Positions 2,005 to 16,462 of a stretch of 26,052 bases of DNA are shown here, piece by piece. The notes under the pieces are model-generated. The model worked only from the letters and a program-made list of their open reading frames with translations. It searched no databases and was not told where the DNA came from. Position numbers and translations under genes: made by a program. Origin of the DNA: Arcobacteraceae bacterium (lineage in GTDB: Bacteria > Campylobacterota > Campylobacteria > Campylobacterales > Arcobacteraceae); assembly GCA_048268245.1 (NCBI GenBank), contig JBLWVX010000035.1:1-26052 (forward strand), read 5' to 3'. Numbering within the stretch: position 1 is the stretch's first letter; each line of letters starts with the position of its first letter.

Positions 2005-4101
2005 ATGAAAATAAAACACTCACTTTTTGCGATGGCGTGTCTTACGTCATTTGCATATTCAAATGACACAATCACACTTGATTCTATTTCAGTTACAGCA
2101 ACAAAAGTTCAAAGAGCTACAAAAGAAGTAACTCAAAGTATATCAGTTGTAAGTAAAGAAGAGATAGATGATAAAAACATCATCAATATTTCAGATGCAA
2201 TAAACACAGTACCAGGGGTAAATGTAGAAAGCTCAACTAACAGTTCAAGTCCTAGACTTATCATAAGAGGTGCTGGTCTTAAAGCTAGATATGGGGTTAG
2301 GGAAATCATGATTATAAAAGATGGGGTTCCTATGACTGATCCTGATGCTTTTACAAGATTTGATTTTATAGATATGCAAGATGTAAAATCTATCGAAGTT
2401 CAAAAAGGACCTGGCTCTATTCAAGCAGCTAATGCAACAGGAGGAGTGATACAGCTTATCACAAAATCTGTTTTTGATGAAGATGAAAATAGATTGAAAT
2501 TTGGGTTTGGAACATATGGGGCTAACCAATCAAACTTTAGGTATTCAACAGCACTTGATGATAAAAACTATATTTCGATAAATGCAAGTACAACTAAAAA
2601 TGATAATAGTTGGAGAGATAATAATGATATTGATTCAAGACAGTTAAGCTTAAAATATGGATATTTATTTGATGATGATTCTGTATTTGAAAGTGAAATA
2701 GCATATACAAAATCAAATATGCAACTACCCGCTTCAATGACACAAAGTGAATTTGAAGAGTTTAAACAAACTGGAAAACAAAAAGATACAAGCTCACCTT
2801 GGCAAAATAGTGCAAGAGATTCTGAGATATTATTTTTAAATGCAAAGTATGAAAAAACAGTTGGAGATATCACTTATAAACCAAGAGTTTATTTTAATAC
2901 ATGGGAGCATTTTCATCCTGTAACTGCAATGATAAATGACAGTACTGATAATAATATTTATGGTACAGATTTAGAACTAAATTATAAACATAAACTTTTT
3001 TCAGATGATGCTACTTTAGTTGCAGGAGTTACTGCAAAACAAGATGTAAGTAAGGATTCTAAGAAATATACATATAAAGATTATACAATAGTTGGAATGG
3101 GAAATAATAGCATCTCTAAAACACTATCTGAACAAACAGGTTATTTAGCAAATGTAGAAGATTCAAAAGCTACTTTATATGGTATATATGTTCAAGAGAG
3201 TTTTAAAGCCTCAAATAAAACTTTAGTGGATTTATCTCTAAGAGTTGATAAAGTTAAATTTGATGTGGATGGAAATGAGATTTTAGAGTATAACTGGAGT
3301 GGTTTTGGAGGTGATACTTATAAGACAGGTGATGGTGCATATTCTATAGATGAAGAGTATACATTAGTATCTCCAAAGATAGGTGTATCTTACGCAATAA
3401 ATGATGCGACTAACCTTTATGCTTCTATTGCTTCAGCAAATCAAGCTCCTACAGATAATGAACTTAAAACAAACATAGTAGAAAATAAAGCAAGTTTAAA
3501 AAAGACAAAAAGTAAAAACTATGAAATAGGTCTAAAGTCAAGAACAAACAAATACTCTTATGATTTAGTTATTTATCAAAATGATGTTAAAGATGAAGTT
3601 ACTGCTGTTAAGCAAAATTGGACTACATCATATGAAAATGCAGGGGAAACTCAAAAAAGAGGTTTAGAGTTTAATACAGCTTATATGCTAAATAAAAATA
3701 TCACATTAGGTGGTTCTTACGCATATAGTGACTTCAAATTTAAAGAGTTTAAAGAAGAAGGAACTTATGATAGAAATGGTAACTACTTACCATATATTCC
3801 AAAACATCAATACTCAATATTTGCAATGTATAAAAATCAAGGCTTTAAAACAAGAGTGCAGTTTAGATCATGGGGTAGTTATTATATGGACAATGCAAAC
3901 TCACAAAAATATGAAGGTTATGATTTTGTAACTGATTTGATGATTGGATATGAAAAAAGAAACCATAATGTTCAGTTAAATGTAAATAATCTTTTTGATA
4001 AACATTATGCTATGTCAGCACAAAAAGATTTGGATGGAGATATTACTTACAAAGTTGCAGCCCCAAGAACTGCAATGCTTACATATACATATAAGTTTTA
4101 A
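2005..4101 (+). CDS. TonB-dependent outer membrane receptor, substrate unknown
   Basis: Signal peptide, TonB box-like DSISVTA, plug motifs VPGV, IIRG, IEVQKGPGS, GGVIQLITK, VNNLFDKHY, C-terminal YKF. Confidence 0.95.
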   Translation: MKIKHSLFAMACLTSFAYSNDTITLDSISVTATKVQRATKEVTQSISVVSKEEIDDKNIINISDAINTVPGVNVESSTNSSSPRLIIRGAGLKARYGVREIMIIKDGVPMTDPDAFTRFDFIDMQDVKSIEVQKGPGSIQAANATGGVIQLITKSVFDEDENRLKFGFGTYGANQSNFRYSTALDDKNYISINASTTKNDNSWRDNNDIDSRQLSLKYGYLFDDDSVFESEIAYTKSNMQLPASMTQSEFEEFKQTGKQKDTSSPWQNSARDSEILFLNAKYEKTVGDITYKPRVYFNTWEHFHPVTAMINDSTDNNIYGTDLELNYKHKLFSDDATLVAGVTAKQDVSKDSKKYTYKDYTIVGMGNNSISKTLSEQTGYLANVEDSKATLYGIYVQESFKASNKTLVDLSLRVDKVKFDVDGNEILEYNWSGFGGDTYKTGDGAYSIDEEYTLVSPKIGVSYAINDATNLYASIASANQAPTDNELKTNIVENKASLKKTKSKNYEIGLKSRTNKYSYDLVIYQNDVKDEVTAVKQNWTTSYENAGETQKRGLEFNTAYMLNKNITLGGSYAYSDFKFKEFKEEGTYDRNGNYLPYIPKHQYSIFAMYKNQGFKTRVQFRSWGSYYMDNANSQKYEGYDFVTDLMIGYEKRNHNVQLNVNNLFDKHYAMSAQKDLDGDITYKVAAPRTAMLTYTYKF

Positions 4102-4112
4102 TAGGACAACAC

Positions 4113-5543
4113 ATGAAAGAGATTGTAAAAAGAAAAGTAAATGATATTTTTTCATTTCCTATAATAGGCTTTATATTTAAAAATGCTAAATTTTTATTTG
4201 TACTAAAACTTATAGTTTTTTCACTATTTATTTATGCTATTTACTTTGGGTTTGCATATGAAACAAAAAGTGAAAATAAGTTTACAACAGGTTTGTTTTG
4301 GAATCTATTTTGGCCTTTTTTTATGGTAGTTAGTTTAGCTACTTTAGGTAGAGTATTTTGTGGTATTTGCCCTCATGGATTTATAGGTAAGTATATTACT
4401 AAAATAGGTTTAAATAAAAAAATGCCAAAAGTTTTAGCTAAGCCTTTTATTGGTTTATCTATTTTATTGATTGGGTGGTGGTTAGTTTACTATATGTATC
4501 CGAGTTTGTTTAAAGCACCAATTGCAACAGCTATTATGTTTACTGTTATGACTATACTTGCCATAATAGTTTTCTATGTTTATGAAAATATGGCTTATTG
4601 TAAGTATATCTGTCCTATTGGAACTATGACTAAAGTTTTCTCTAAAGTAGGATTTACAAAGTTAGAAACATATAAAGATGGTTGTGCTTCATGTAAGACA
4701 TTTGATTGTGCTAGTGCTTGTAGTTATAATCTAAAACCTTTTACTTTTAATAAAAAGAATTCTATGGAAGATTGTACTTTATGCATGGATTGTGCTAGTT
4801 CTTGTGAGAATGTGGCTTTTTCTTTAAAAAAACCATCTTCAAATTTATTTGGTAAATTTAAAATAAACAAAGCTGAGGTTTGGGCTCTTATATTTATAAC
4901 AGCTGTGATTTCTATAACTATGAGTTTTCATCATGCTCTTGGAAGAAGTGCAATAGTTGAAGATTTCTTTTGGGTTAAAACAGCAAGATATTTTGAGAGT
5001 TTTATAAATTTTGGGTCTATTGATACTGTAGGCTTATTTGCATTATTATATGCAGTTATTATATCTGTTTTTTTGAGTGTGTCTGGGATGTTTATAGCTT
5101 CAAAGATTATGAAAGTTTCATATGAAAAAACCTTTTATACTTTAGGTTATGCTTTTGCTCCTTTATTTATAATAGGTGGATTATCTCATATTGGAGAGTT
5201 TTTCTTTTATTCTTATGCTTCAAATATAGTAAATGGATTTATTCAAGCGTTTTCTTTAGACTATGAATATATAAAGCCTCTTGCAAGTAGAAGAGATGAA
5301 TGGGTGCATGTCTTTAAAGTATTTAATCATATAGCTTATATCTGGGCATTTATTATTATGATTGGAAGATTAAAGTTTATAGATACTAAAACATCTTTAA
5401 AAGTTTTAGCTTTTCCTTTTGCAAGTGCTTTGATTATTTTTTATATGTGCTTAAAATTTTATACAGGATATGTTTTTCAAACTTATGGAGCTTCAAAAGG
5501 TGGGCATTCCCATCATAAAACAGTTTCATCTAAAAAAGAGTAG
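4113..5543 (+). CDS. Polytopic membrane 4Fe-4S protein (NapH/MauN/CcoG-like polyferredoxin)
   Basis: GRVFCGICPHG and YCKYICPIG motifs, CASCKTFDCASAC and CTLCMDCASSC clusters, many TM helices, His-rich tail GGHSHHK. Confidence 0.9.
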   Translation: MKEIVKRKVNDIFSFPIIGFIFKNAKFLFVLKLIVFSLFIYAIYFGFAYETKSENKFTTGLFWNLFWPFFMVVSLATLGRVFCGICPHGFIGKYITKIGLNKKMPKVLAKPFIGLSILLIGWWLVYYMYPSLFKAPIATAIMFTVMTILAIIVFYVYENMAYCKYICPIGTMTKVFSKVGFTKLETYKDGCASCKTFDCASACSYNLKPFTFNKKNSMEDCTLCMDCASSCENVAFSLKKPSSNLFGKFKINKAEVWALIFITAVISITMSFHHALGRSAIVEDFFWVKTARYFESFINFGSIDTVGLFALLYAVIISVFLSVSGMFIASKIMKVSYEKTFYTLGYAFAPLFIIGGLSHIGEFFFYSYASNIVNGFIQAFSLDYEYIKPLASRRDEWVHVFKVFNHIAYIWAFIIMIGRLKFIDTKTSLKVLAFPFASALIIFYMCLKFYTGYVFQTYGASKGGHSHHKTVSSKKE

Positions 5544-9173: not shown

Positions 9174-9194
9174 TTAACAAAATTTCTATATAAT
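9174..9194 (+). promoter_or_regulatory. Putative sigma70 promoter for leader ORF and btu-like operon
   Basis: TATAAT at 9189-9194 with TTAACA starting 15 nt upstream, the same spacing as at 1957/1972. Confidence 0.6.
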
Positions 9195-9237
9195 TCCGCA
9201 CTTTTAAACTACAAAATTTTATAAAGGAGGAATAATC

Positions 9238-9423
9238 ATGATTAGTAAATCGAAGAAATACTTCACATTTTATGGTATTTTAGCTGCTACAGTTGATAGA
9301 AAGATACACTCTTCTTACTGTACTGTACACTCAATTATGAGTCAAGATTTACCTAAAATCACAAAATTACTTTTAAGTAAACAATTAAAACCAATCAAAA
9401 TAAATTTAACAAATCACATATAG
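9238..9423 (+). CDS. 61-aa hypothetical protein, candidate leader peptide/uORF
   Basis: Near-ideal RBS AAAGGAGG 7 nt before ATG; fills the space between promoter and receptor; stop 22 nt before the receptor ATG. Confidence 0.7.
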   Translation: MISKSKKYFTFYGILAATVDRKIHSSYCTVHSIMSQDLPKITKLLLSKQLKPIKINLTNHI

Positions 9424-9445
9424 AAACAAAATAGGGAAAATAATA

Positions 9446-11245
9446 ATGAATAAAAAATTAACTACAAGCTTAGTTGCAAGCTTACTAATAGCAACAAACC
9501 TAACTGCAAGTCAAACTTTAGACACTATTACTGTTACAAGTGCCACAAAATCAGAACAATCAATCAAAGACGTTACTTCAAATGTAGAAGTTATTACAAG
9601 CCAAGAAATAGAAGAGAGACATTTTACTACAGTTTCAGAAGCATTAAGTACACTTTCAGGTATTAATTTAATATCAAATGGTGGTTTAGGTAAAAGTACT
9701 TCTGTTTATGTAAGAGGTATAGATAGCGAAAAAGTTTTAGTATTAATAGATGGTGTAAGATTTAATGATGTGAGTAATTTTACTGGTGGAGCAGATTTTG
9801 CTAATTTAAATATTAATAACATTGAACAAATTGAAGTTATAAAAGGTGCTCAAAGTGGTCTTTGGGGTGCTGATGCAACTGCAGGTGTTATTAATATTAT
9901 TACAAAAAAGCCAGAAGATGGATTTAATGGGAATATAAATGTAGAATTCGGAAGTTTCCAAACAAAGAAGACAAATACAATTTTATCATATGGAACAAAA
10001 GATTATTATCTTGAGGCTTTTTTAAATACAATTGATACTGATGGTTATACAGCACATGCCAAAGATGATACAGATATTGATAATTATGAAAAAGATGGAT
10101 TTAAATCAAGAGAATATGGTTTAAAAGCTAAATATAATATTGATGATTCTAATTCAATAGGATTTGCTCACAAAATTATTGATAGTAAAGTTGATTTAGA
10201 TACACCATCATCAGATAATTTAGTAAATAATTCTGAATATAACTATAAAGTTTCATCAGTTAATTATGAAAATATTTATAATGATATTAAAACAAAAGCA
10301 CATATAAATAGAACAGTATATGATTGGAGTTATATTAGTAGTTATCCAAGAAGTGACTATGATGGTAGCTTAACTGAGTATGGTATCGAATCAACTATTC
10401 CTTACTTTAATGAAAAGTCTTTTTTAATGTTAGGTACTAATTATAAAGATTTTAAAAAAGAAAATGATATTAACAGAGACTACAATAATAAAGCACTTTT
10501 TATAACAAATAGTAATAGTTTCAATAATAATCAAACAATATTTACACAATCATTAAGATATGATAATTTTGATAAGTTTGAAAATAAAACAACAGGAAAA
10601 GTTGGTTTAAAACATTTCTTTACTAATGATTTTTTTGCTAGTACAAACTATGGAACAGCATATAATGTACCAACTGTAACTAGGCTTTATCATCCATCTT
10701 ATGGAAATGAAAATTTAGTTCCTGAAAGTTCAAAGGCTTTTGACTTAACAGCAGGGTATAAGAATTTTGAAGTGACTTATTTTAAGACAAAAATTAAAGA
10801 TTTAATTGGCTGGGATAGTGGATATAGTAATATTAAGGGAACATCAACTATTGAAGGATATGAGGCTTCATATAAAAAAGATGTTTTAGAAGATTTATTT
10901 TTAGGAGTTAACTATACGCATTTAGATGCAAAAGATGCTAAGGGTAAAGATTTAGCAAGAAGAGCAAAAAATTTAGTTAATTTATCATTAGATTATTATG
11001 GTATAAACAAAACACATATTAACTTAAATGGCCAGTATGTAGGAACTAGATATGATGATCCAAATAAGACAGGTGGACAAACAGGAAGATACACTGTTTG
11101 GAACTCTGTTGTAAACTATGAAATATCAAATGACTTAAAAACATATTTAAAGGTTGATAATATATTTAATAAATATTATCAAATTGCAGATGGTTATGCT
11201 ACTTCACCAAGAGCATTTTATGTTGGTTTAAATTACAAGTTCTAA
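9446..11245 (+). CDS. btuB: TonB-dependent receptor, BtuB-like (probable cobalamin/corrinoid)
   Basis: DTITVTS TonB box, NGGLGKSTSVYVRG, VLVLIDGVR, IEVIKGAQSGLWGADA, LARRAK; compact 599 aa; ABC genes follow and cbiA is nearby. Substrate inferred. Confidence 0.75.
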   Translation: MNKKLTTSLVASLLIATNLTASQTLDTITVTSATKSEQSIKDVTSNVEVITSQEIEERHFTTVSEALSTLSGINLISNGGLGKSTSVYVRGIDSEKVLVLIDGVRFNDVSNFTGGADFANLNINNIEQIEVIKGAQSGLWGADATAGVINIITKKPEDGFNGNINVEFGSFQTKKTNTILSYGTKDYYLEAFLNTIDTDGYTAHAKDDTDIDNYEKDGFKSREYGLKAKYNIDDSNSIGFAHKIIDSKVDLDTPSSDNLVNNSEYNYKVSSVNYENIYNDIKTKAHINRTVYDWSYISSYPRSDYDGSLTEYGIESTIPYFNEKSFLMLGTNYKDFKKENDINRDYNNKALFITNSNSFNNNQTIFTQSLRYDNFDKFENKTTGKVGLKHFFTNDFFASTNYGTAYNVPTVTRLYHPSYGNENLVPESSKAFDLTAGYKNFEVTYFKTKIKDLIGWDSGYSNIKGTSTIEGYEASYKKDVLEDLFLGVNYTHLDAKDAKGKDLARRAKNLVNLSLDYYGINKTHINLNGQYVGTRYDDPNKTGGQTGRYTVWNSVVNYEISNDLKTYLKVDNIFNKYYQIADGYATSPRAFYVGLNYKF

Positions 11246-11246
11246 T

Positions 11247-12080
11247 ATGAAAAAATACACATTTATACTTTTATTTTTTTGTATAAATTTATTAGGGAGT
11301 GAGAGAATTATAACTCTTACTCCTTCAATAAATGAGATTGTTTTTGCTTTAGGACAAGGAAAAAATGTAGTTGCTAATACTTTATTTAGTAACTATCCAA
11401 AAGAATCGAAAGATTTACCTAAAGTAGGTGGTTATGCAACTATGTCATTAGAGAAAATCTTAAATTTTAAACCAACGGTTGTTATTGCACAAGATTATAA
11501 TCAAAAGCTTATTTCTGATTTAAAAGCTTTAGGTGTTAAAACTTTGGTTTTTAAAACAAATACTTTAGATGATATTAAGCATACAATCAAAACTTTAGGT
11601 GAGTATTTTAAAGTAGAAGAAAAAGCAAATGAATTTTTATCTCAAATTGATAATGAGCTAAAACAGTTAAGCAATATAATCAATGATAAAAAAATATTAT
11701 TAGTTATTGGACCTAGAAAAGATTTAAATAATCAGATTTATATTACAGGAAACAATTTATATTTTGAAGATGTTATAAAGGCTTCAGGAAACAGAAATGC
11801 TTACTTCTCAACTAGTACAAATCAACCAGTTGTAAATAAAGAAAAGATTATAAATATGAATCCTGATATAATTATACTTTTAAGCCCCAGAATTAAAGAT
11901 AATTTGGAAGAACAAAAAAGATTAGAAAAATCATGGAAAACTCTTCCTGTAAATGCAAGTATAAATAAAAATGTATATTTAATTGCAAAAGATTATGCAG
12001 GAATACCTAGTGATAGGGTGATTTATTTTATAAAAGATTTTAAAAAGATATTAATAAATGTTAGAAATAAACAACTATAA
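11247..12080 (+). CDS. Periplasmic binding protein, helical backbone (BtuF-like)
   Basis: RIITLTPSINEIVFALG, NYP, LPKVGGY, SLEKIL..KP motifs; signal peptide. Confidence 0.88.
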   Translation: MKKYTFILLFFCINLLGSERIITLTPSINEIVFALGQGKNVVANTLFSNYPKESKDLPKVGGYATMSLEKILNFKPTVVIAQDYNQKLISDLKALGVKTLVFKTNTLDDIKHTIKTLGEYFKVEEKANEFLSQIDNELKQLSNIINDKKILLVIGPRKDLNNQIYITGNNLYFEDVIKASGNRNAYFSTSTNQPVVNKEKIINMNPDIIILLSPRIKDNLEEQKRLEKSWKTLPVNASINKNVYLIAKDYAGIPSDRVIYFIKDFKKILINVRNKQL

Positions 12081-12759
12081 TAGTTCTATTTTAAAAGATA
12101 TTTCATTTTCTCTAAATGAAAATGAAAATCTTATAATTTTAGGACAAAATGGCGCAGGAAAATCAACTCTTGCAAAAGTTTTATCAAATCTAATTGAAAA
12201 TGATGAAGTTAAACTTTTTGATGTGAATATAAATGATATAAGTGATGACAAAAGAGCATCTTTAATAAACTATATTCCTCCAAAACTTGAAATATTTGAT
12301 GAGTATATTACTCTAAGAGAGTTTTTAGAGTTATCAGCAATCAACAATAGTGACAACAACTCACAGATAGATAAAATCATCGAATTACTGAGTTTAAAAA
12401 AATTAGAAAATAGATTTTGTAAAGCTTTTAGTTCTGGGGAAAAACAGCTTTTACTTCTTGGTTCTGCGATTATGCATAATGCAAAGATTACTATATTTGA
12501 TGAACTTACTGCAAACTTGGATATTACGAGATTAAAAGAGGTATATGATATTTTCAAATCTGATTTTTTACAACAGAAAATTGTAATAACTCATAATCTT
12601 GACTTAGCATATGCTCTAAAATTTAAAGTTTTATACTTAAAAGATGGGCAAATAAAGTTTTATGGTTCAAATGAAGAGTTTTTTTCAAATGAGAATCTTC
12701 AAAAATTTTATAATAACTCAATTATAAAATTAGATAAACATTTGGTGGTGAATTTATGA
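12058..12759 (+). CDS. ABC transporter ATP-binding protein (BtuD/FepC-like)
   Basis: Walker A GQNGAGKST, signature FSSGEKQ, Walker B/D-loop IFDELTANLD, H-loop ITHN. Confidence 0.92.
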   Translation: MLEINNYNSSILKDISFSLNENENLIILGQNGAGKSTLAKVLSNLIENDEVKLFDVNINDISDDKRASLINYIPPKLEIFDEYITLREFLELSAINNSDNNSQIDKIIELLSLKKLENRFCKAFSSGEKQLLLLGSAIMHNAKITIFDELTANLDITRLKEVYDIFKSDFLQQKIVITHNLDLAYALKFKVLYLKDGQIKFYGSNEEFFSNENLQKFYNNSIIKLDKHLVVNL

Positions 12760-13730
12760 TAAAAAAACTATTATTTATATCATCACTTTTTATTATAGTG
12801 ATTTCTCCATTTTTAGGAGAGATTACACTAAATCTAAATGAACTATTTGATCCTTCAACTATTACTTATAAAGTATTTTGGGAGTTAAGAGTTTCAAGGG
12901 TGTTTTTAGCACTATTAGTAGGTGGAGTTTTAGCCTTGAGTGGTTTGATTTTTCAAATTATTTTTAAAAATGCTTTGATTACACCATATACTTTAGGAAT
13001 AGCAAGTGGTACGACTTTATTTACGGCTATTTCAATAGTATTTATTCCAAGTATAATACTTCCTGTTTCATCATCTTTTGGCTCTTTAGTAACTATTATA
13101 ATCTTATATTACATCTCAAAAAGAATAAACAATAACAGTATTGCTGTATCTACTAATTCTATTTTATTAATAGGTATTGCCTTGTCATATTTTTATTCAT
13201 CAGCTTTAATGCTTGTTTTTTATCTAAGTGATTTAGAGCAAAACTACTCAATAGTGAGATTTACTTTAGGAAGTTTAGATACAGTTGGGTTTAGTAGCCC
13301 TTTTTGGGTACTTATTGCAAGTTTGATTATGTACTTTACTATTTATGTAAATAAAGCGAAGATAAAACTGCTTCTTATATCTAATGATACAGCCTTTTTA
13401 AAAGGACTTAATGTACATAAATTAAACCTTACATTACTTGTGGTTATCTCTTTATGTGTAGGTATTTGTATTAGTTTTGTAGGGCCTATTGGTTTTATAG
13501 GTTTAGTAGTTCCTCATATTATCAAGCTTATTTATAAACAAAGTGCAGATAAGTTAATCTTCCCTGTATTCTTTTATGGAGGTGTATTTTTAGTTGTTTC
13601 AGATTTGATAGCAAGAAATTTAAATACAGCTTCTACACTTCCAATTGGTGTTGTAACAGCATTTATTGGGGCACCATTTTTTGTATATCTTCTTATAAAA
13701 AGAAATAAAAAAGCAAATGAAGGAAACTAA
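12756..13730 (+). CDS. FecCD/BtuC-family ABC permease
   Basis: LRVSRV, FQIIFKNALITPYTLGIASG, GPIGFIGLVVPHI, LPIGVVTAFIGAPFF; ATGA overlap with the ATPase gene. Confidence 0.95.
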   Translation: MIKKLLFISSLFIIVISPFLGEITLNLNELFDPSTITYKVFWELRVSRVFLALLVGGVLALSGLIFQIIFKNALITPYTLGIASGTTLFTAISIVFIPSIILPVSSSFGSLVTIIILYYISKRINNNSIAVSTNSILLIGIALSYFYSSALMLVFYLSDLEQNYSIVRFTLGSLDTVGFSSPFWVLIASLIMYFTIYVNKAKIKLLLISNDTAFLKGLNVHKLNLTLLVVISLCVGICISFVGPIGFIGLVVPHIIKLIYKQSADKLIFPVFFYGGVFLVVSDLIARNLNTASTLPIGVVTAFIGAPFFVYLLIKRNKKANEGN

Positions 13731-15202: not shown

Positions 15203-16462
15203 ATAAAAACTCTATGTATTAGTGCAACTGCATCAAATCAAGGAAAAACAATACTTACAACAGCCTTACTTTATCACTATAAAAAAAGTGTAAGACCTTT
15301 TAAAATAGGACCTGATTTCATAGATCCTCAGTTTCACCAAAAAATCTCTAAAACACCAAGTATAAATCTTGATATAAATATTTGTAAAAAAGATGGTGTA
15401 AAATGGCTTTTTTCTAACTATAGTAATAAGGAATTTTCTATTTTAGAAGGTGTTATGGGTTTTTATGATGGAATGGATAAAAATTCATCAGCTTATGATG
15501 TTACAAAACTTTTAGATGTTCCCACTGTTCTTATTTTAGATGCAAGTGGTTCATATATCACTTTAAGTGCTATTATTAAAGGACTAAAAGAGTATAGAAA
15601 AGATAACACTATAAAAGCAGTAGTATTTAATCATATCTCATCACAAGGTCACTATGAACTTATAAAAAATCAAGTTAAAAAAGATTTTGATGATGTGGTT
15701 TGTCTAGGTTTTATCCAGAAAAATTTAGAGTCATTGAGTTCTACTCATTTAGGTTTAGACTTAAAAGATTGTAATGAAGAAAAAATAGAAGAACTTTCAA
15801 AAGAAGTACTTAAAAATATAGACTTACAAAAACTTGAAGAGATTTGTGAATATAAAAAGGAAAATATAAGTTATCCTTTTGAGAAAGTAAAAAAGCAAGA
15901 TAAACATATAGCAGTTGTTTATGATGAAAACTTTTCATTTTTATACCATGATAATTTAGAGTTTTTAAAAGAGAATTTTTCAAAAGTAACTATAGTAAAT
16001 AGTATAAAAGATGAAACTATTCCAACTGATGCCAATAGTGTATTTATTTGTGGAGGTTATATCGAAACGAAAGAGTCTTATGATAAATACAAAAACTCTA
16101 ATAACTTTCAAGTTTCACTAAAAGAGCATGCTAAAACAAAAAAAGTTTATGGGGAGTGTGCTGGTTTGATACTATTAGGTGAAACTTGTGATGATAAACA
16201 GATGTTAGGTTTACTGCCTTTAGAGTTTACTTTAAATAAAAGATTTGTTCGTATGGGATATTATGATAATGATTTAGGTATTACAGGGCATGCTTTTCAT
16301 TATACTAGTGTAAAAAGTTCTATAAAAGGTGAGTATACTTTATATAAGAAAAAAGGTGAATATGAAAAAGAGGCTGCTTTTAAAAAAGAGAATGTTTTTG
16401 GAACATACTTGCATACTATGTTTAGGGCAAATTTTAGTAAAATAAAAAACTATTTAGTATAG
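15203..16462 (+). CDS. cbiA: Cobyrinate a,c-diamide synthase (CbiA/CobB), apparent ATA start
   Basis: Frame extends 84 codons upstream of the ORF-track start: SNQGKT P-loop, FKIGPDFIDP, NLD, EGVMGFYDG; GATase domain YGECAG, GHAFHY, GTYLH. Confidence 0.9.
   Translation: MKTLCISATASNQGKTILTTALLYHYKKSVRPFKIGPDFIDPQFHQKISKTPSINLDINICKKDGVKWLFSNYSNKEFSILEGVMGFYDGMDKNSSAYDVTKLLDVPTVLILDASGSYITLSAIIKGLKEYRKDNTIKAVVFNHISSQGHYELIKNQVKKDFDDVVCLGFIQKNLESLSSTHLGLDLKDCNEEKIEELSKEVLKNIDLQKLEEICEYKKENISYPFEKVKKQDKHIAVVYDENFSFLYHDNLEFLKENFSKVTIVNSIKDETIPTDANSVFICGGYIETKESYDKYKNSNNFQVSLKEHAKTKKVYGECAGLILLGETCDDKQMLGLLPLEFTLNKRFVRMGYYDNDLGITGHAFHYTSVKSSIKGEYTLYKKKGEYEKEAAFKKENVFGTYLHTMFRANFSKIKNYLV

Follow-up and report, generated by a model that had tools for sequence, protein, structure and literature searches.

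A leader-peptide family associated with the B12 regulon of Campylobacterota

Across the Campylobacterota, abundant marine, vent, and host-associated bacteria, a short N-terminal peptide motif of translated leader ORFs appears to mark the B12 regulon (btuB, metE, and cbiMK), as supported by comparative sequence analysis, in a phylum that is nearly without cobalamin riboswitches. The leader-peptide family is real, conserved, and apparently undescribed, since a full-text search of open-access PMC and bioRxiv found no paper on it. It was traced from a window of 26,052 nucleotides (contig JBLWVX010000035.1) of an Arcobacteraceae bacterium (genome G000), for which the original prediction was a translated, structured leader in the place where a riboswitch would be expected. 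The core of this idea is supported and extends further than claimed, but the two parts proposed to do the sensing, a His/Cys/Met patch and an RNA junction, are not. What is added here is a leader class that has neither Pro-Pro nor a hairpin, a distribution split by the presence of metH, and an exchange of leader and riboswitch before cbiM. The family offers a concrete, testable answer to the question of B12 control in a phylum nearly without the riboswitch, and the motif is a practical marker for B12 receptors among unannotated TonB receptors.

The btu operon and its leader ORF

The leader and the operon behind it lie on the forward strand of the window. A TATAAT hexamer at 9189-9194 is seen in the sequence as a candidate -10 element. 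TAyAAT occurs at most 75 nt upstream of the leader ORF in 24 of 31 orthologous loci, and no -10 hexamer of their own was seen in 7 of the 31; a sigma-70 scan, however, returned no forward-strand site and no -35 match for the hexamer at 9189-9194, and the promoter claim holds for the hexamer only. The leader has a strong ribosome-binding site (RBS), AAAGGAGG, at 9223-9230, and here the earlier claim is borne out: the full AAGGAGG precedes 19 of the 31 leaders versus 5 of 1649 long control genes of the host genome. The 61-codon ORF at 9238-9423 ends 22 nt before the receptor start at 9446, so that hexamer, RBS, ORF, and gap are all present as first described. The RBS of btuB (9433-9437) is predicted to be open from its pairing probability.

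The operon encodes, in this order, a BtuB-like TonB-dependent receptor (9446-11245; best match TIGR01779, E 1e-92), a BtuF-like binding protein (11247-12080; NF002894, E 3e-28), an ABC ATPase in the position of BtuD (12058-12759), and a BtuC-like permease (12756-13730; NF003001, E 2e-54). The annotation as a btuB-like operon is upheld by B12-type NCBIfam best matches of receptor, binding protein, and permease, all of them below the curated cut-offs, but not by the ATPase, which is matched best by generic ABC ATPase models (BtuD model, E 7e-21). The reported absence of a cobalamin riboswitch was confirmed with the Rfam models RF00174, RF01482, and RF01689, none of which matched the window at E up to 5, and the Rfam covariance models found no cobalamin riboswitch in the host genome either.

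In a set of 31 loci, made up of the 30 best btuB matches (the window's own among them) and L005, the leader ORF is intact throughout, in the same position and with 59-64 codons. Its dN/dS is 0.44 (pooled pairwise over 30 sequences, kinship ignored) with the codon-position pattern of a protein; by segment, the ratio is 0.32 for residues 7-26, 0.62 for residues 27-38, and 0.35 for residues 39-60. At conserved residues synonymous codons vary freely, and most of them are in use, which indicates that the constraint acts on the peptide and not on the RNA. The 61-codon ORF is a real, conserved gene. Neither Pfam nor NCBIfam has a family for the window-class leader, and a scan of 30 window-class and 11 metE-class members against Pfam, DUF2946 included, gave no match. 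The close relatives of the peptide come from Arcobacter species and are all named 'hypothetical protein'; a database of 1.84 billion representative proteins contributed 38 matches, 34 of them 36-82 aa long. An AlphaFold model with two helices (pLDDT 71, pTM 0.37) is uninformative.

A shared motif and its link to B12

The N-terminal motif (residues 4-26; 9247-9315) follows the pattern basic-YF-x-L/F-x-x-I-L-A and is shared with the leader of metE and, more distantly, with leaders of cbiM and other btuB genes and with receptor signal peptides. A profile built only from btuB leaders of the window type (A2) matched 123 of 184 genomes of the host family. It also matched, with E down to 4e-9, a second, longer ORF directly before metE (confirmed as MetE by Pfam), including one in the host genome (G000:C2:62016-62372; L137:2517-2873), which has a GTG start, the motif, an acidic EEPP, CHCDC, and a terminal FAFRRTGVHPP. 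Alignment of A2 with A3, a profile of the metE leaders that matched 204 of 401 phylum genomes, gave a probability of 96.8 and an E of 2e-10 over 36 columns (hhalign), and all 40 loci fetched from A3 matches lie before metE or a TonB receptor. HMMs made from metE leaders only, the seeds of which had first been found through A2, rank the window ORF second in its genome, and the reversed sequence had no comparable match. With an HMM of all non-window classes mixed, the window ORF ranks only 193rd in its own genome, and in cross-scores its class falls nearest the metE motif, well away from the other classes. The window motif has thus diverged, and its link to the family runs through the metE-type motif.

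Five classes can be distinguished, whose C-terminal halves are unrelated. Long leaders with the motif, an acidic Pro-Pro, CxCxC, and a terminal (H/A/S)PP precede metE or a receptor (class a), and short leaders with motif and Pro-Pro precede btuB or cbiM-cbiK (class b). The window class (c), found before btuB, combines the motif with KQLKP...STN and has no Pro-Pro; in class d the motif is fused to a receptor as its signal peptide, and class e comprises metE leaders with Cys and Pro-Pro that lack the motif. The position before btuB is fixed throughout the host family: in a count that used the 110 short btuB-type matches of A2 without the longer-frame and weak ones, a motif leader heads all 121 btuB-like matches in 120 genomes, 64 of the 184 genomes having no btuB match at the threshold used. 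Among the 121 leaders, 83 are of window type within 120 nt, two have a second receptor gene in between, and 36 are of the short Pro-Pro type. The best 80 of 274 loci yielded 74 distinct long leaders, 73 before metE and one at a contig end, with six loci not fitting the leader pattern. In this sample of the best 80 loci CxCxC occurs in 58 of the 74 metE leaders, always (58/58) 39 residues before the last Pro-Pro, and the distance from Tyr to the first Pro-Pro is 40-44 residues in 50 metE leaders; in the short leaders, Tyr to Pro-Pro is 38 residues in 35 of 35. The window class has no Pro-Pro, no CXXC, and no cysteine motif, and its Tyr is followed after 44 residues by a single Pro only. With respect to a possible N-terminal export signal, mean hydropathy is 1.96 in ten receptor-fused motifs, compared with 0.96 for 46 free leaders, whose values run from -0.03 to 2.11.

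The metE leader has no known family in the protein atlas either; it has 683 homologs, and among the 120 matches listed there is no Pfam domain and only 'hypothetical' names. Most searches covered Campylobacterota genomes; in one of the three that reached further, the named groups among the best 80 of 274 loci all belong to this phylum, next to one 'uncultured bacterium'. Weak motif matches (E above about 1e-3 per genome) are often noise and were set aside as such, for example L110/L147, L142-L144, L155, L247, L250, L252, L374, and L375.

The B12 riboswitch is the standard bacterial control of btuB, metE, and genes for cobalt and B12. According to the available part of a published account, cobalamin riboswitches govern B12 transport, biosynthesis, and metE (PMC9600662). 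The presence of the motif follows that of the B12-dependent methionine synthase gene, metH. In a sample of 151 Campylobacterota genomes, 41 have metH, 88 metE, and 39 the motif. The motif occurs in 39 of the 41 genomes with metH versus none of the 110 without it, a split that, since the genomes are related, stands for no more than a handful of independent losses of metH, and that was obtained with a motif HMM partly trained on sampled genomes and with YF fixed by the selection pattern; each of the 39 also has a match at E below 5e-4. None of the 60 genomes that have metE without metH carries it, and of the 11 genomes in genus g24, the 10 with the motif are also the 10 with metH.

RF00174 matched none of the 151 phylum genomes (7 of 14 in the control). 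Genome G197, however, which has metH without the motif, contains a probable AdoCbl-II riboswitch (34.5 bits at a cut-off of 36.5, E 2e-6) at L407:1501-1590 (G197:C82:264774-264863). This element is degenerate, AT-rich, and missed by RF00174, and it lies directly before a cbiM gene that shares 69% identity with a cbiM headed by a leader. Before cbiM, leader and riboswitch take the same place, and cobalamin riboswitches in the phylum are rare but not wholly absent. No other credible one was found among 40 metH genomes; a second RF01689 match (G215, E 0.007) was discarded because it lies inside a coding gene. Motif-less metE leaders (class e) persist not only in some metH genomes but also in the genera g25 and g33, which have no metH. 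Thus, the family also answers to something besides B12, and the Cys module probably reads another signal.

A putative cis switch and its alternatives

Downstream of the motif, the end of the window leader is conserved (K51 in 30/30, L50 in 29/30, P52 in 28/30, and T58 in 29/30). KQLKP (9379-9393), 44 residues after the motif Tyr, is a candidate pause site together with the following S/L-T-N. The ORF tail and spacer (9349-9438) are unstructured, A-rich, and richer in C than in G, and form a candidate Rho loading site: over the final 75 nt of the ORF together with 15 nt of spacer, (C-G)/(C+G) is 0.44, a value reached by 0.24% of 1649 gene ends. The skew exceeds the 95th percentile of the controls in 27 of the 31 leaders and may partly follow from Lys, Pro, Thr, Asn, and Ile codons. 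The next RBS is predicted to be little paired in the window class (0.19 versus 0.55 in shuffled sequences; 1 of 29 above control). In the Pro-Pro classes it is predicted to be paired, with a modest excess over shuffles, at 0.70 versus 0.58 for the short class (31 of 34 above 0.5) and 0.73 versus 0.64 for the metE class (70 of 71 above 0.5). There is no intrinsic terminator near the leader, and the host genome encodes rho. Pro-Pro, cysteines, and an anti-RBS hairpin are missing, but the tail is unstructured and C>G, so that Rho-type control of the window-class operon appears likely. The window-class leader does not fit a classical amino-acid attenuator, as a conserved Met/Cys/His run and a terminator are absent. 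Public sequencing runs contained at most 16% of the words and gave scattered contigs, from which the expression of leader and btuB was not rankable.

Sequence patterns of this kind lead us to favour, with slightly better than even confidence, a B12 switch in cis, in which a default pause near the 3' end would shield the tail with its C>G skew, and the release of that pause would fall to a B12-dependent partner at the motif. The leader would switch btuBFDC according to B12 status during its own translation. In the absence of B12, a ribosome halted close to the 3' end, at KQLKP/STN in the window leader or at Pro-Pro in its relatives, would cover the C>G tail, so that Rho would be kept off and the operon would stay on. 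With B12, the partner would take hold of the motif immediately beyond the exit tunnel, the pause would be released, and Rho would stop transcription before btuB. Relatives with Pro-Pro would have a different output, a hairpin that covers the RBS of the following gene. We infer the pause, the ligand, the partner, and the action of Rho alike, and the pause site of the window leader is a guess, since this leader has neither Pro-Pro nor a cysteine motif. MetH would be the first candidate for the partner, if a rather unlikely one, put forward on elimination and co-occurrence only: G000 has no dedicated B12-binding regulator among its PF02310 proteins, which are just MetH and the small subunit of glutamate mutase, and no adenosyltransferase of the CobA/BtuR type. 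If the switch operates in this way, the range of arrest-type leaders, which comprises metals and small metabolites, would come to include a large cofactor. In a broader and more doubtful scenario, the Campylobacterota would have given up the B12-riboswitch regulon for a portable tag in the nascent peptide, which B12-loaded methionine synthase, or a cobamide at the tunnel exit, would read and which would be wired to three outputs: an RBS hairpin after a Pro-Pro stall, Rho termination as in the window, and direct control of a receptor signal peptide. This would be the first cofactor-sensing leader-peptide regulon.

A cis B12 switch of opposite logic, in which B12 or a B12-loaded factor would stall the ribosome early on the motif and thereby expose the C>G tail to Rho or break the coupling to btuB, is unlikely. 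It would need no Pro-Pro, which fits the window class and the receptor fusions, and the C>G tail lies within the last third of the ORF. However, it leaves the fixed spacing of 38-44 residues to Pro-Pro in most relatives unexplained, and cobalamin is a large molecule for the ribosome tunnel.

We consider it distinctly unlikely that the signal of a cis switch is methionine, homocysteine, or SAM status, or cobalt, and not B12 itself. Such a signal would suit genes that all serve methionine synthesis (metE, metH, and B12 uptake), the motif-less Cys/Pro-Pro leaders that stay before metE in metH-less genera, and the cobalt transporter CbiM. Against it speak the missing motif in 60 of 60 metE-only genomes, the cobalamin riboswitch in the leader's place before one cbiM, and the lack of conserved metal ligands in the window leader. 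The central His/Cys/Met patch, KIHSSYCTVHSIM (9301-9339), is present in the sequence but is variable and the least conserved part of the leader (dN/dS 0.62), its residues H24, C28, H31, and M34 being found in 10, 14, 11, and 3 of 30 sequences, respectively. A metal site or conserved ligand site was rejected on these grounds, and the sensing role assigned to the patch was not borne out.

It is improbable that the leader acts in trans, as a small protein accessory to the Btu transporter; the original prediction had named a small accessory uptake protein among its readings. Purifying selection on the C-terminal half (dN/dS 0.35), the two predicted helices (pLDDT 71), and the strong RBS would be expected of such a protein, but the same motif leads the gene of a cytoplasmic enzyme, metE, as well as cbiM and is fused to signal peptides. 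Moreover, the ORF always comes first and in cis, its apolar stretch is only about 11 residues long, and the C-terminal halves differ between classes. Slightly less probable still is a relic, in which the window class, its arrest site lost, would sense nothing and serve only to couple translation to btuB. The class indeed has no Pro-Pro, no cysteines, and no anti-RBS pairing, and its motif has diverged, but motif and C-terminal residues are under purifying selection over 110 family matches, and the length of the class holds at 59-64 residues.

The sequence permits the three-way RNA junction of the original prediction, but its predicted fold is a different one (z -1.8 for 9255-9375). RNAalifold found no consensus pair among the leader homologues, the three helices are 81%, 73%, and 47% paired across them, and the covariation was reached by 26 of 500 shuffles; the junction was therefore rejected. 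Within it, a possible weak long-range helix (9269-9275 with 9352-9357) has a 7-bp core kept in 28-30 of 30 rows, one pair in 24 of 30, with no compensatory change, and this could be explained by the Phe-Gly and Pro-Lys codons. That the RNA itself is a new structured sensor and the ORF incidental, a reading for which the kept core and the codon use at F12 (TTT in 29/29) and P39 (CCA in 26/28) might be cited, has a minimal probability given the missing consensus fold, the poorly paired third helix, covariation within the shuffles, the protein-like codon-position pattern, and homology to the other classes at the peptide level.

Related systems and further observations

Two of the closest known systems are copper-responsive leaders. 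CruR of Bordetella pertussis (Bp2923, DUF2946), as described in the available part of PMC9426467, is likewise a uORF heading a TonB-dependent receptor operon. As in the relatives of the window leader, its sensor motif precedes a proline pair at the C-terminus by a constant number of residues; with the window leader itself it shares an unstructured C>G stretch inside the ORF and a ligand predicted to shut uptake off. Its spacing of 45 residues (PMC9426467, same part) resembles the 38-44 residues of the leader family. However, CruR responds to copper through CXXC/RAPP and has a spacer of 162 nt (PMC9426467, same part), whereas the leader family is tied to the B12 regulon and the basic-YF motif without a DUF2946 match, and the window leader has a spacer of 22 nt and neither Pro-Pro nor a Cys motif. 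By analogy, the window class looks like CruR's Rho arrangement, and the leader would work like CruR or CutF without being a DUF2946 member. In CutF of Rhodobacter capsulatus, a stem-loop that covers the RBS of the following gene is under the control of pausing, and the same is predicted for the relatives with Pro-Pro; its N-terminus is signal-like, as may also hold for the leader family. CutF differs in that it is an exported copper sensor activated by its ligand (available part of PMC9973294), and the window class has no RBS hairpin. The same part of that paper mentions neither cobalamin, B12, nor Campylobacterota.

Cobalamin riboswitches (RF00174, RF01482, and RF01689) have the same targets as the leader family, namely B12 transport, biosynthesis, and metE in metH genomes, and the metE leader with its two modules parallels the tandem SAM-Cbl riboswitch (available part of PMC9600662), but in the leaders conservation resides in the peptide, and no aptamer matches in the window. 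Small ORFs that end in a proline pair and precede a TonB receptor are also found among the RAPP/RGPP arrest peptides of the SecM and ApdA/ApdP class (available parts of PMC10987492 and PMC12992588), but the relatives of the window leader end in (H/S/A)PP and not in RAPP/RGPP. The main texts of these two papers, as far as available, contain neither metE nor B12, and ten supplement files of PMC12992588 contain no Arcobacter, Sulfurimonas, or cobalamin. The metE and ppe2 uORFs of Mycobacterium tuberculosis share with the leader a translated uORF at a B12-controlled metE, but there, according to the available part of PMC11260477, a riboswitch senses and the uORF modulates, whereas no riboswitch was found for the leader family.

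Within the window leader, Thr58 (9409-9411) is encoded by ACA in 29 of 29 rows, although in the genome as a whole ACA accounts for 50% of the Thr codons; a constraint on the nucleotides of the tail and a trace of a former Pro codon are candidate readings. Elsewhere in the window (2005-5543), another TonB receptor, with no leader motif in front, precedes a polytopic membrane protein of the 4Fe-4S type (Fer4_5). A cobB/cbiA-like gene (15203-16462), whose frame is open about 250 nt upstream of the listed ATG with a probable ATA start, looks like the remnant of a B12 synthesis cluster, as queries with cbiM, cbiK, cbiL, and cbiH found nothing in G000. On another contig (L256:5-1782; G000:C37), genes similar to the small and large subunits of glutamate (methylaspartate) mutase represent a second B12-dependent enzyme.

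Fusions of the motif in frame as a TonB receptor signal peptide occur in L197-L199, L227-L231, L242-L245, L249, L253, and L385; some of these receptors adjoin metH or a cobalamin adenosyltransferase gene, and two keep the acidic Pro-Pro linker. Motif-less metE leaders with CNC and a terminal Pro-Pro were seen in metH-less Campylobacteraceae (L193-L196, L234, L236, L381, L382, and L444) and are possibly a separate sensor of methionine/cysteine or zinc; in L381 and L382 a short cluster of Met, Cys, and Pro codons overlaps the 5' end. Several families encode a membrane protein of 135-195 aa after the B12 receptor (L379:2174-2611, L380:2334-2741, L367:1226-1792, and L372:706-1293). It has no NCBIfam family (two tested), was not found in G000, and is a candidate inner-membrane cobamide transporter. 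Finally, in L125, L126, and L133-L136 the btu operon begins with, or includes, a second type of TonB receptor of about 635 aa, placed after the same leader, which possibly serves other corrinoids as a receptor.
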